A stretch of 64,000 nucleotides of DNA from Candidatus Poribacteria bacterium (GCA_965218095.1 OZ244587.1:4576001-4640000), one strand, 5' to 3'. Shown: positions 1,830 to 64,000, counted from the stretch's first letter. Notes: generated from the sequence alone by a model not told the origin. Numbers and translations: made by a program.

Positions 1830-1903
1830 CGCGTCCGGAGGGACTCGAACCCCCAACTTATAGGACTGAAGTCTATCGCTCTATCCAATTGAACTACGGA
1901 CGC
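1830..1903 (-). tRNA. Arg-type tRNA body with TCA anticodon (opal suppressor-like, or degenerate tRNA-Arg(TCG))
   Basis: GCGTCCGTAGTTCAATTGGATAGAGC...ATAGA-CT TCA GT-CCTAT...GGTTCGAGT; intact acceptor, D and T arms; A31-C39 mismatch. Confidence 0.75.
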
Positions 1904-1981: not shown

Positions 1982-2057
<76 letters not shown>

Positions 2058-2063
2058 AAGAAA

Positions 2064-2362: not shown

Positions 2363-2392
2363 AATATACCACATGAGTATAGGCAGTTGCAA
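2363..2392 (-). promoter_or_regulatory. Putative sigma70 promoter of the tRNA-tig-clpP operon
   Basis: TTGCAA-N18-TATATT with extended TG on the minus strand. Confidence 0.45.
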
Positions 2393-3325: not shown

Positions 3326-4257
3326 TCATAAGTGGCGATTAAATTGAAAATCCATGGGTTTTCCGTTAAAGTAGAGGTAATCCAAACCATAATACCTCAA
3401 AGGAGAAACCAAAGGAGAAACCCATGGACATCCAAATTGCAACCATTTTCTATCTCTGTGACAAGCTCTTAGAAGCACTCAACTCAAAACCACACCCACA
3501 AACGCAGATGTCTGATGCCGAAGTGATGACCACCGGCATCGTCGCTGCGTTGTTCTTCGGGGCAAACTTGCAAACCACTTGTGACTTTCTAAAGACTCAT
3601 GGCTATATACCCAAGATGCTTTCAAAAAGTCGATTAAACCGATGTTCACCACATTGTTCAAAATCTTGGGACGAAGCTATGTGCAACTTAATCAACAGAA
3701 AATCTATGCACTGGATACCATACCAATTGCTGTTTGTTCCGCATTCGTCGGTCAAAAATCTATACCGATAAGGCATATCGAGGCTATCAAGCGTCCAAAC
3801 GTCGGTATTTCTATGGCTTGAAAGTTCATCTGCTAGTGACTGCGAGTCGACACCCTGTTGAATTTTTTGTGACCCCAGCCAGTACAGGGGACGTTGAAGG
3901 GTTACAGTGGTTTGACTTCGACTTGCCACCGGGCTATGGTGACAAAGCATACAATAATTATGAGATAGAAGATATTGTTACATCAGTCGGAGTCGAATTA
4001 AAGCCAGTACGCAAGAAGAATTCCAAGCGGCTGTATCCACCATGGGAGACCTACTTGGCTAATTACCATCGTAAGTCTGTTGAGACGGCTGGCAGTTTGA
4101 TTAACAAACTGCTTTCACGTTCAATCCATGCAGTAACGCGACACGGATTTGAATTGAAAGTGGTCTTGTTTGTATTGGCTAGCAGTATCAATCAGCTCTG
4201 AGTTCACTCACATATTCAGTTCACTCACATATTCGATGAATAGGTCGCAACTTGGGT
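3326..4257 (+). mobile_element. IS982-family element with frameshifted transposase (3424..4201)
   Basis: MSDAEVMT, RYFYGLKVHL, YGDKAY, RKSVETAGS motifs; right end GCAACTTGGGT; left end similar (AAGTGGCGA), boundary approximate. Confidence 0.85.
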
Positions 4258-22025: not shown

Positions 22026-22380
22026 GGGGGTGCAAAGGTTTCGACGGGAGTGGATGATATAAAGGTTGCATGCCGAGGTCTCCGCAGGCCTCGTTAAACA
22101 GGCGGAAAAAATTTAATTGCCGATGAAGAATTGGCTCTAGCTGCTTAATAAAGCAGTTCGTCTCGCTAATTTGCGGTCCCGTCGAGTTAGCGAGACGTCA
22201 TAAAACGGGCTTTGCGCCTTGCTTGGTCTCAAGGGGCAAGCTGTGAGACTCAACTTGAGATAGTCCGCAGCGAATCCGGCATAAGGGAGTCTTGTGGACG
22301 AAACGCTAAAACTTATGCTATGCATGTAGTAGCCTTTATTGAACTGCTCTCGGACGCGGGTTCGATTCCCGCCACCTCCA
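22026..22380 (+). ncRNA. ssrA: tmRNA; tag peptide (A)ADEELALAA resuming at 22119
   Basis: GGGGGTG..TTCGAC 5' end, GGACGCGGGTTCGATTCCCGCCACCTCCA 3' end, tag ORF ending LAA TAA TAA. Confidence 0.97.
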
Positions 22381-62739: not shown

Positions 62740-62878
62740 TTCCTCCCTAAATAAATTGAAATAATAGATAGAAGAATGAAAGGACGGGAAGAGAGTGGTG
62801 GCTTTCTTCCATCTTTCCCTTCCTGATTTTCTTCCGATGCCGAAAAAGAATCGGAATACGACTTTTTCAGTTAGCGAA

Positions 62879-62965
62879 CGCCGGTTGAGTAGCGAAGCGT
62901 ATCGAAACCAAGTGAGCGACATCGGGTGGGTTTCGATACGTCGCAGTGCTCCTACTCGACCAGCG
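62879..62965. repeat. Palindromic repeat GGTTGAGTAGCGAAGCGTATCGAAACC...GGTTTCGATACG..CTACTCGACC
   Basis: Two nested inverted arms. Confidence 0.8.
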
Positions 62966-63076
62966 CAACTCCGCGTCGCCGGTGCTGAGGCAGACAATCT
63001 CAGGGAACGCGGCGTTCCACTTGCTCTCAGGGTCTCAATATACCGTGACGTGCTGAAGCTCATTTACTGTAGCCAT
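62966..63076 (-). pseudogene. N-terminal fragment of a sialidase-like gene
   Basis: RBS AAGGAG; MATVNELQHVTVY*DPESKWNAAFPEIVCLSTGD; ends at the palindrome. Confidence 0.5.
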
Positions 63077-63108
63077 TGGTTTCTCCTTTTCAACGTTAGT
63101 GGTTGTCA

Positions 63109-64000
63109 CTAAGGCGTAAAGGCGCAGCGAAAGCCAATGCCGGAGTTCGTGGTCGTGGGAGCGCGCCCGCCCCGTCTCAGCACGCTCACCTGATCGCCGA
63201 GGGTGCTGAAAAACGCCCCGCCGCGCGTCACACGCCGCGTGTCAACATTTGTGAAATCATCATTCACAAAAGCAACCGGGCCGCCGGCGATTGGGTTGTG
63301 CCTTGGGCTATTTGCGTAGAAGTCCTCCTGATACTCATCCATGCACCACTCGAAGACGTTCCCCGCCATGTCGTGCAAGCCGTAGCCGTTGGGTGGAAAG
63401 CTTCCCACAGGCGCCGTTTGTTCCCACTCATCGTTGCCTTCGACGCCCAGGGTATTGGCGTTACGGACGCGCTCATCCCCCCACGGCAACTTCTTGCCCT
63501 TCAGTTTCCCGCGGGCTGCCTTCTCCCACTCCGCTTCCGTCGGCAGCCGTTTGCCCGACCACTGCGCATACGCGGCGGCGCCGTACCAACTCACTTGAAT
63601 CACCGGATGATCCGCGAACCCCGCCTTCGGGCGGTACTGCCCCCCATCCAATTCTATCAACTCGCTGCCGCCGGCCTCAAGGTTGAACCAGGTCTTGCCA
63701 TCATCCCCCACATGCTTCCCAACCGCATTGAGGAATTTGGCGTACATGGCGTTGGTCACTTCCGTCACGTCAATGTAGAAGTCGTCGAGCTCGACGATGT
63801 GGACCGGGCGTGCGGTGCCGTCGTGGGCTCCATTGAAATGGTCGCCCATCTCAAACTCACCGGCGGGGATTAGCTGCATCGTCGCCCCGTCCGCGTCCCA
63901 GGTGAGCTCCGTCTTCCGCCTGATGGATATCGGCATTGTCTGCTCCGCCGTGACGGGGGGAGAAGTGCTGTTGCGGACCGTGAGCGTGATTGTATATATT
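63109..64000 (-). CDS. FGE-sulfatase (SUMF1) domain protein; frame open to the window edge
   Basis: IPAGEFEMG, RLPTEAEWEKAARG, DMAGNVFEW, GFRCA; upstream YTITLTV (PKD-like). Confidence 0.9.
   Translation of the reverse strand, partial: IYTITLTVRNSTSPPVTAEQTMPISIRRKTELTWDADGATMQLIPAGEFEMGDHFNGAHDGTARPVHIVELDDFYIDVTEVTNAMYAKFLNAVGKHVGDDGKTWFNLEAGGSELIELDGGQYRPKAGFADHPVIQVSWYGAAAYAQWSGKRLPTEAEWEKAARGKLKGKKLPWGDERVRNANTLGVEGNDEWEQTAPVGSFPPNGYGLHDMAGNVFEWCMDEYQEDFYANSPRHNPIAGGPVAFVNDDFTNVDTRRVTRGGAFFSTLGDQVSVLRRGGRAPTTTNSGIGFRCAFTP

Follow-up and report, generated by a model that had tools for sequence, protein, structure and literature searches.

A tRNA-Arg(UCG) orthologue with a UCA anticodon in the core tRNA operon of a sponge-symbiont bacterium and of a second, non-sister genus

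Introduction

The anticodon-mutant tRNA-Arg of phage T4 is an opal suppressor. In organisms that read UGA as tryptophan (NCBI table 4), a tRNA-Trp(UCA) derived from tRNA-Trp accompanies the loss of RF2, and TGA serves as a sense codon. The 'tRNA-Other' of Bacillus cereus is a pseudo-tRNA with a non-translational role. Reassignment of a stop codon is thought to start with a stop-reading tRNA while the release factor persists. To our knowledge, natural bacterial examples of such an ambiguous stage are scarce once the Sec and Pyl systems and phages are set aside.

A full-text literature search, supplements aside, did not turn up any natural bacterial tRNA-Arg(UCA), the engineered human suppressor being the only one described, or any account of stop-codon oddities in Poribacteria. 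For human tRNA-Arg(UCG), five of six variants (isodecoders) carrying G36A are reported to suppress nonsense codons (PMC12361112). Bacterial tRNA-Sec is described as having an 8-bp acceptor and a 5-bp T stem, a long variable arm and a length of about 90–100 nt (PMC5330540). In the Sec-related UCA tRNAs, namely selC* tRNA-Cys and the allo-tRNAs, the acceptor and T stems are arranged as 8/5, 8/4 or 9/3, the variable arm is long and dedicated factors are used (PMC7609411).

Here we describe a tRNA of canonical size with a UCA anticodon in a sponge-symbiont bacterium, whose genome (G000) is a single contig of 6.35 Mb with 50% G+C. The gene lies in a stretch of 64,000 nucleotides that was analysed as a whole and is called the window below. 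Coordinates refer to the window unless they are marked as genome coordinates.

Results

The UCA tRNA and its operon

ARAGORN calls a tRNA with the anticodon tca at 1829–1903 on the minus strand. The Rfam tRNA model RF00005 matches 1830–1903(-) over the full model (1–71) with 58.3 bits (E 7.9e-12), exceeding the gathering score of 29 bits. Read on the minus strand, the 74-nt tRNA has the acceptor stem GCGUCCG/CGGACGC with the discriminator G73, the D stem GUUC/GAGC, a D loop (AAUUGGAUA) in which A20 is present, the anticodon stem AUAGA/CCUAU, the anticodon loop CUUCAGU, a 5-nt variable loop and the T stem GGGGG/CCCUC, forming a 7/5 cloverleaf. The one non-standard pair that Rfam marks in the anticodon stem is A31·C39. 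The anticodon U34 C35 A36 occupies 1867–1869 on the minus strand and is complementary to UGA, as in opal suppressors. ARAGORN, Rfam and our reading of the minus strand thereby agree with a sequence-only reading of the window on the cloverleaf, the acceptor, A20, G73, the loop, the mismatch and the anticodon position; that reading gave the anticodon in plus-strand coordinates with no strand named, and the strand proved to be minus.

A20, C35 and G36 or U36 are identity elements for ArgRS in the E. coli literature, and G73 is an identity element for TrpRS. The UCA tRNA retains A20 and C35 and has A36 in place of G36 or U36. ARAGORN attaches the label 'SeC' to the gene due to the anticodon alone. 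The 74-nt length, the 7/5 arrangement and the 5-nt variable loop do not match tRNA-Sec, for which the gene had already been judged too short. In addition, it is not the tRNA-Sec of this bacterium, because a genuine 94-nt tRNA-Sec lies elsewhere, at genome 2576029–2576122, directly after selB.

On the minus strand, the operon runs from a relic tRNA-Pro through tRNA-Arg(UCU), tRNA-His, tRNA-Pro(UGG), the UCA tRNA, tRNA-Lys(CUU) and tRNA-Leu(UAG), and the genes for trigger factor and ClpP follow downstream. ARAGORN and Rfam both support tRNA-Arg(UCU) (2150–2226), tRNA-His(GUG) (2064–2138), tRNA-Lys(CUU) (1743–1819), which follows the UCA tRNA after about 10 nt, and tRNA-Leu(UAG) (1647–1733), the last gene of the operon. 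The trigger factor gene (310–1626, minus), with the Pfam domains Trigger_N, FKBP_C and Trigger_C, served as a linked marker for the local phylogeny. Upstream of the operon, a promoter-like site at 2363–2392 (minus) consists of TTGCAA, 18 nt and TATATT, with TG before the second hexamer, and is a candidate by its match to the consensus.

The position of tRNA-Pro distinguishes the operons of the family. In other genera, the ancestral order is Pro-Arg-His followed by the Arg(UCG) slot, and a functional tRNA-Pro stands where the relic lies here. In G000 and genus g4, a working tRNA-Pro is located between tRNA-His and the Arg(UCG)/UCA slot; in G000 this is the tRNA-Pro(UGG) at 1982–2058 (minus; ARAGORN and synteny), whose derived position belongs to the order common to genus g4. 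The decayed tRNA-Pro copy at the ancestral position (2248–2326, minus) is called by ARAGORN as a 79-nt 'Pro(agg)', and it has no Rfam match even at E<=1. It provides a local yardstick for the decay of an unused tRNA gene.

A fragment of a DDE transposase lies near the operon at 3734–4201 (plus). Farther along the window, a tmRNA gene with the tag peptide ADEELALAA is found at 22026–22380 (plus).

Three substitutions relative to the UCG orthologues

A BLAST search with the 74-nt query gave a match in 40 of 41 genomes of the same order. The genome without a match, G002, has an operon from which both tRNA-His and the slot tRNA are absent. ARAGORN was run on 39 of the 40 matching loci for a comparison of the slot. 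The same operon slot holds tRNA-Arg(tcg) in 36 of these 39 loci, with 82–95% identity to the tRNA of the window, which establishes the UCA tRNA as the positional orthologue of tRNA-Arg(UCG). The derivation from tRNA-Arg(UCG) offered by the sequence-only reading is therefore upheld, and the relatives do carry TCG, a point it had listed for checking. The other three loci comprise two tca tRNAs, in G000 (genus g1) and G006 (genus g7), and a copy in G012 with a 4-nt deletion, which ARAGORN no longer calls.

Alignment of the two tca tRNAs with all UCG orthologues revealed an identical trio of substitutions, G36A, A38U and U39C. Derived A36 is encoded at 1867, where the relatives have G36. Derived U38 (1865) and C39 (1864) replace A38 and U39 of the relatives and yield the A31·C39 mismatch together with a C32·U38 combination. 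The 31–39 pair is Watson-Crick in all 36 UCG orthologues, covarying among A-U, U-A and C-G, and A·C occurs solely in the two UCA tRNAs.

Outside the anticodon arm, the tRNA of G000 shows just two differences from the g4 orthologues. The bodies of the two UCA tRNAs are distinct, with C6, G26, A69 and G73 in G000 and U6, A26, G69 and A73 in G006, which is also shorter by one G ahead of the T stem. Meanwhile, the flanks of each UCA tRNA resemble those of its own relatives. Another assembly of the species of G006 (the metagenome contig L072), 99.2% identical in this context, contains the G006-type tRNA with the same anticodon arm. The Rfam tRNA score is 64.1 bits for a g4 UCG orthologue, 51.1 bits for the tRNA of G006 and 44.5 bits for the broken copy of G012, with the 58.3 bits of G000 lying between the first two.

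We searched for further cases by pattern. A first scan of 159 genomes of the order matched two of them, and a wider pattern matched five, with tRNAs in G000 and G006 only (the reversed-pattern control gave four matches); no Arg-type UCA tRNA beyond G000 and G006 was found by the two scans in the 159 genomes. When a single representative genome of each prokaryote species was scanned, with a pattern of one particular D arm plus G37 and U38 that other UCA designs would escape, 28 matches were obtained. The sole true tRNA among them is identical to that of G006 over the compared stretch. Ten matches, judged by eye, resemble 5' halves of tRNA-Arg genes and continue after CTTC into non-tRNA sequence. 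These loci (L077, L080, L084–L086, L089–L093) belong to other phyla, several lie between tRNA-Pro and tRNA-His, and ARAGORN calls no tRNA at any of the ten. They may be intron-bearing tRNA-Arg genes. The other matches appear random.

Two lineages with the same triple change

In a trigger-factor tree of all 29 genomes of the family, rooted with the neighbouring family, genus g7 (that of G006) and genus g3 are basal. G000 is nested as the sister of g4, and the genera g5, g2 and g6, all with UCG, branch in between. The rpoB tree groups G000 with g4 and g6, and G006 with g3, g5 and g2. Forcing G000 and G006 into one clade costs 69.8 log-likelihood units and is rejected (AU p = 5e-9). The gene order is concordant with the trees: G000 has the derived Arg-His-Pro-X order of g4, and G006 has the ancestral Pro-Arg-His-X order, where X is the UCA tRNA. 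G000 and G006 thus represent non-sister genera with the same triple change.

Because the lineages are separate and the bodies and flanks of the two tRNAs differ, the triple change must have had two origins or have passed between the genera as a patch no longer than about 20 nt. Within G000, the derived 12- and 14-mers have no second copy and the 10-mers are no more frequent than expected by chance, so that the genome holds no donor for gene conversion elsewhere. A scan of IMG/VR for a phage-borne copy gave a single match, which is not a tRNA. Template switching is no more than a possibility for a one-step origin of the three changes: the derived AGUC mirrors GACU, but the ancestor had just one pair in that register beforehand. 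By our own rough arithmetic, the chance that the same two extra substitutions are drawn again is about 1 in 24,000.

Two observations on the marker genes were made along the way. In each of the four g5 genomes (L188, L189, L190, L192), the match to trigger factor contains one TAG, which may be the natural stop with an overrun of the alignment. The rpoB gene of G000 (genome 1014233–1019158, L050) is a single frame of 1675 aa, in which a large insert splits the model match into 2–275 and 297–1238; the match is likewise split in several g4 genomes. The insert may be an intein or specific to the lineage.

Redundancy of the UCG isoacceptor

Besides the UCA tRNA, the Arg tRNAs of G000 have the anticodons ACG, CCG, CCU and UCU. 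The tadA gene (178 bits; genome 1301258–1301865, L294) adjoins that of tRNA-Arg(ACG), the tRNA edited by TadA. With both present, CGA is readable through inosine; the share of CGA among Arg codons is 15.6% in G000, 17.2% in G003, 16.4% in G002 and 17.4% in G006. Since tRNA-Arg(ACG) with TadA reads CGU, CGC and CGA and tRNA-Arg(CCG) reads CGG, the UCG isoacceptor is dispensable in the family. It has been lost in two other lineages of the family, deleted in G002 and broken in G012, and selection on it appears to be relaxed.

Coverage by RNA contigs

Four runs from four studies were compared over 1200–2800 of the window, one of which (X3) is a sponge metatranscriptome from another study. A 216-nt contig of X3 with a depth of 28.6 covers 1795–2010, that is, the whole gene and both spacers, with 0 differences. 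The depth over the adjoining tig gene is about 7. A second X3 contig has the form of the relatives, with the linked plus-strand changes 1864 G>A, 1865 A>T and 1867 T>C. The depth of X3 is 40–360 over the operon and 0 at 2334–2441, upstream of the promoter-like site, a segment that the DNA-type runs do cover. The contigs of this one RNA library fit the transcription of the operon as a precursor.

Stop codon usage

TGA terminates 40.1% of the 2613 ORFs of at least 300 codons in G000 and is the commonest stop there. Among all stops counted, the share of TGA is 39.9% in G000 (n=4415), 33.0% in G003 (n=273), 38.6% in G002 (n=280) and 36.4% in G006 (n=118), so that the UCA carriers show no avoidance of TGA as a stop relative to their relatives. 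Backup stops are not in excess either: in G000, a further stop occurs within three codons after 12.8% of TGA and 13.0% of TAA stops. The release factor gene prfB (512.6 bits) keeps its CTT TGA C +1 frameshift site with AGGGGG before it, and selB and tRNA-Sec are present. The genetic code of G000 is unchanged, and UGA is still its main stop.

In-frame stops inside genes

Screens by coding potential alone yielded hundreds of same-frame pairs for all three stops. Because neighbouring genes and antisense frames made up most of these pairs, we used a stricter screen, Pfam checks and a homology screen. Under the strict screen, a stop was kept only if it was flanked on both sides by 60 or more coding-like codons, lay in the best of the six frames and was followed by no start codon over a stretch of 20 codons; 36 in-frame TGA, 22 TAA and 48 TAG passed. 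Among the top 20 cases of each stop, a Pfam domain spans the stop in 9 for TGA, 10 for TAG and 3 for TAA; in one more TAG case the stop falls between the HAMP and HisKA domains, and the picture is ambiguous for two of the TAA cases.

Two of the nine Pfam-spanned TGA cases resemble selenoproteins. One is thioredoxin-like with a W-X-G-W-C motif, X-G-W-C standing for CxxC, and the other is a UGSC-family protein; these likely selenoprotein genes lie at genome 841057 and 2610648 (L114, L116). A possible third selenoprotein, at genome 5450815 (L113), is MetE-like and has TGA where its 31%-identical homologue in G003, probably a paralogue, has Cys.

The homology screen used 1.2 Mb of G003, the closest complete relative (19% of its genome), and included 627 ORFs with matches and 225,994 aligned residues. 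In the coding frame, it found 10 TAG, 4 TAA and 3 TGA, and a second TGA in one of the genes was dropped by the filter, so that in-frame TGA number 3–4. In a reverse control, ORFs of G000 against 400 kb of G003 gave 26 stops, most of them near ORF starts or in multi-stop frames, under filtering that differed from that of the forward screen. Among the sites with a legible ancestral residue, those at which Trp is replaced by TGA and by TAG number five each, two of the assignments being read by eye from motifs or paralogues.

TGA is not over-represented among the in-frame stops of G000. The excess of in-frame TGA that the sequence-only reading had proposed to look for is absent from both the strict and the homology screen. 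No tRNA with a CUA or UUA anticodon is present in the tRNA set of G000; as no tRNA reads TAG or TAA, the genome carries a general load of nonsense-interrupted genes. In-frame stops within conserved genes, TAG being the commonest, are found for example at genome 6172137, 1274394, 5918751 and 2620420. The many in-frame stops look like a sizeable load of young pseudogenes. A CCWGG-type context was considered for the many in-frame TAGs; CTAGG stands at three of ten sites.

One gene deserves separate mention. A PhyH-like gene (genome 4258529–4259665, minus) contains two in-frame TGAs, both at Arg codons of G003 (CGG and CGA). Downstream of the first TGA, conservation is undiminished (0.78, against 0.77 upstream of it), and the gene has no other lesion. 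Suppression with insertion of Arg would allow this gene to be read, which is the only hint of a read-through trace; genes with two TAA or two TAG stops likewise occur in G000. A candidate CGA>TGA site at 63035, pointed out earlier, found no backing. In its ORF (62747–63109, minus; TGA taken as X), no homologue covering the site was found in five relatives, in which a single weak match extends over residues 48–83, off the site. Taken together, the avoidance of TGA, backup stops and tolerated in-frame TGA give no genomic trace of read-through.

An alternative helix in the anticodon arm

Positions 36–39 of the UCA tRNA, AGUC, are the exact reverse complement of positions 30–33, GACU. All three substitutions contribute to pairing in one alternative register, which consists of G30-C39, A31-U38 and C32-G37. 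According to a 17-nt model, which leaves aside tertiary structure and modifications, the UCA arm has +0.5 kcal/mol in the canonical form and -1.0 kcal/mol as the alternative hairpin, and the corresponding values for the UCG arm are -0.5 and +4.8 kcal/mol. Minimum-energy folding of the whole tRNA is uninformative, because it fails to recover the cloverleaf even for normal UCG orthologues.

Discussion

A redundant isoacceptor with a remodelled anticodon arm

We favour, with a probability of roughly 55%, the reading that remodelling of a redundant tRNA-Arg(UCG) gave rise to a UCA tRNA that is still made, has a crippled anticodon arm and is at most a weak suppressor with no visible effect on the genome. 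Redundancy would have let tRNA-Arg(UCG) change, and G36A, A38U and U39C remodelled its anticodon arm. The product is a tRNA transcribed with the operon, with a canonical body and with UCA displayed in a weakened arm.

We infer the charging of this tRNA and its decoding strength from sequence features. ArgRS probably still charges it, with A20 and C35 kept and G36 alone lost, and TrpRS might charge it as well through C35, A36 and G73. Efficient UGA readers have a modified A37 and an intact 31–39 pair, and natural UCA tRNAs have A37 and A38. TrmD needs G36-G37, and G37 after A36 is no substrate for it. The UCA tRNA probably decodes UGA poorly on three counts: it has neither the G36-G37 context of TrmD nor a hypermodifiable A37, its 32–38 combination is unusual, and its 31–39 pair is broken, such that a helix of G30-C39, A31-U38 and C32-G37 can close the loop. 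Given such poor predicted decoding, it would be at most a weak opal suppressor that inserts Arg or Trp. RF2 would outcompete it at ordinary stops and leave the genome with no detectable mark, and the tRNA would be tolerated in a genome already rich in nonsense-interrupted genes. As five of six human G36A variants suppress, a single G36A is likely dangerous, and A38U and U39C may make it tolerable.

The sequence-only reading had posed the alternative of a natural UGA suppressor or a decaying isoacceptor. The UCG origin in that alternative stands. The case for an efficient suppressor is weakened, as in-frame TGA are not in excess, TGA is not avoided as a stop and backup stops are no commoner after it. 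Nor does plain decay account for a tRNA that is otherwise intact, is represented in RNA contigs and has the same substitutions in a non-sister genus. Since the body differs from the g4 orthologues at only two positions while the neighbouring tRNA-Pro copy has decayed, either the body is still constrained or the change is recent.

The recurrence counts against the reading we prefer. Unselected decay is not expected to repeat three substitutions in two non-sister genera, and the two extra changes that are identical in both lineages are unexplained by it. The recurrence and the intact body keep two further explanations alive.

Could the tRNA be under selection?

The tRNA could be a selected, working opal suppressor, charged with Arg or Trp, for which low-level or conditional read-through of UGA is beneficial; A38U and U39C would then tune its strength, and the state would have been reached twice. 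We regard this as a minority possibility, at about half the weight of the reading above or a little less. It would account for the identical triple change in two non-sister genera, for the intact body and for the exact RNA contig, whose depth surpasses that over tig. The single gene in which two TGAs stand at Arg positions and the downstream part is conserved also points this way, and G36A suffices in human tRNA-Arg(UCG) (PMC12361112). On the other side, TGA is neither depleted as a stop nor provided with extra backup stops. In-frame TGA are fewer than in-frame TAG, which no tRNA of G000 can read, and replacements of Trp by TGA and TAG are equally numerous. The loop does not have A37 and A38, the features of efficient UGA readers. 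Moreover, the copy of G006 has lost one G in the variable loop/T stem, has A73 and scores only 51.1 bits, and g3, the sister genus of that of G006, has lost the tRNA altogether.

A wider version of this idea is that sponge symbionts of the Poribacteria lineage have twice made a UGA-reading tRNA by the same remodelling and kept it under the standard code, either as a weak or conditional read-through device or as a regulatory tRNA with a masked anticodon. We consider it doubtful, somewhat more so than the selected suppressor.

It is less likely still, though worth setting out, that the gene encodes a tRNA-shaped RNA that does not decode at all. In such an RNA the loop would be closed into a UUCA-capped helix, and the molecule might act as a folded spacer that secures the processing of the neighbouring operon tRNAs by RNase P and RNase Z, or it might be a pseudo-tRNA with a regulatory role. 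The exact complementarity of 36–39 to 30–33 suggests this, as does the alternative hairpin, which is favoured over the canonical arm by about 1.5 kcal/mol and, in the UCG ancestor, disfavoured by about 5 kcal/mol. The conservation of the tRNA body is consistent with it. Since the three changes all pair in one register, this explanation would also account for the recurrence of the same three. However, the energies are small and come from the 17-nt model, in which tertiary structure and modifications have no part. A processing role is not essential, because G002, in which the tRNA is lost, and G012, in which it is broken, manage with no replacement; a regulatory role has no known partner or target.

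Two explanations can be set aside as extremely improbable. A sequencing or assembly error in place of a true TCG, which the sequence-only reading had named as what would overturn it, could draw on the TCG-form contigs of relatives that co-occur in the samples, but it is excluded by the exact 216-nt contig over the whole gene in an RNA run of another study, by the separation of the two forms by three linked changes rather than one, and by the same arm in G006 and the independent contig L072. A reassignment of UGA to Arg or Trp, for which the sole support is a UCA tRNA other than tRNA-Sec, conflicts with TGA as the stop of 40% of long ORFs and the commonest one, with an RF2 that is neither lost nor altered and keeps its UGA-dependent frameshift site, and with in-frame TGA that show no excess.

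Significance

A tRNA-Arg with an anticodon for UGA resides in the core operon of a 6.35-Mb genome in which TGA ends 40% of the long ORFs, and a second genus has taken the same path. If the tRNA is active, it would be an intermediate of code evolution that exists today, and also a natural blueprint for an attenuated Arg suppressor, the type of tRNA that is now engineered against human disease alleles with CGA-to-UGA changes. If it is inactive, it would show how a dangerous anticodon mutation can be disarmed with the gene left in place. The significance of the finding lies in the recurrence.

Comparison with known systems

The UCA tRNA would resemble an anticodon-mutant tRNA-Arg opal suppressor in its working, by analogy. 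Like the human G36A and phage T4 suppressors, it is of the Arg type, has A at position 36 and thus UCA, and keeps C35 and the rest. Those suppressors are laboratory mutants, rare alleles or engineered forms with a single change, whereas the tRNA of G000 is a fixed chromosomal copy in the core operon of a wild bacterium. It further differs from them in two additional changes that break the 31–39 pair and in its occurrence in two genera, and its activity is a prediction from sequence.

With tRNA-Sec, selC* tRNA-Cys and the allo-tRNAs, it has in common that its anticodon is UCA and that UGA nevertheless serves its bacterial host as a stop. In contrast to these, it has a 7/5 arrangement, 74 nt and a 5-nt variable loop, and it is no member of the group. 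The tRNA-Trp(UCA) of organisms with UGA as Trp is similar in its canonical size, in UCA and, for G000, in G73. Here, however, the tRNA descends from a tRNA-Arg, in a genome with an intact RF2 and with TGA as its main stop.

The loss of redundant isoacceptors offers another parallel, since tRNA-Arg(UCG) is redundant with tRNA-Arg(ICG) and has been deleted in G002 and broken in G012. Unlike in such pseudogenisation, the full cloverleaf is kept in G000, and a stop anticodon was gained by the same three changes in two lineages. The 'tRNA-Other' of Bacillus cereus likewise combines an altered anticodon region with retention in the chromosome; this is a resemblance only, with no regulatory target or phenotype known in G000.
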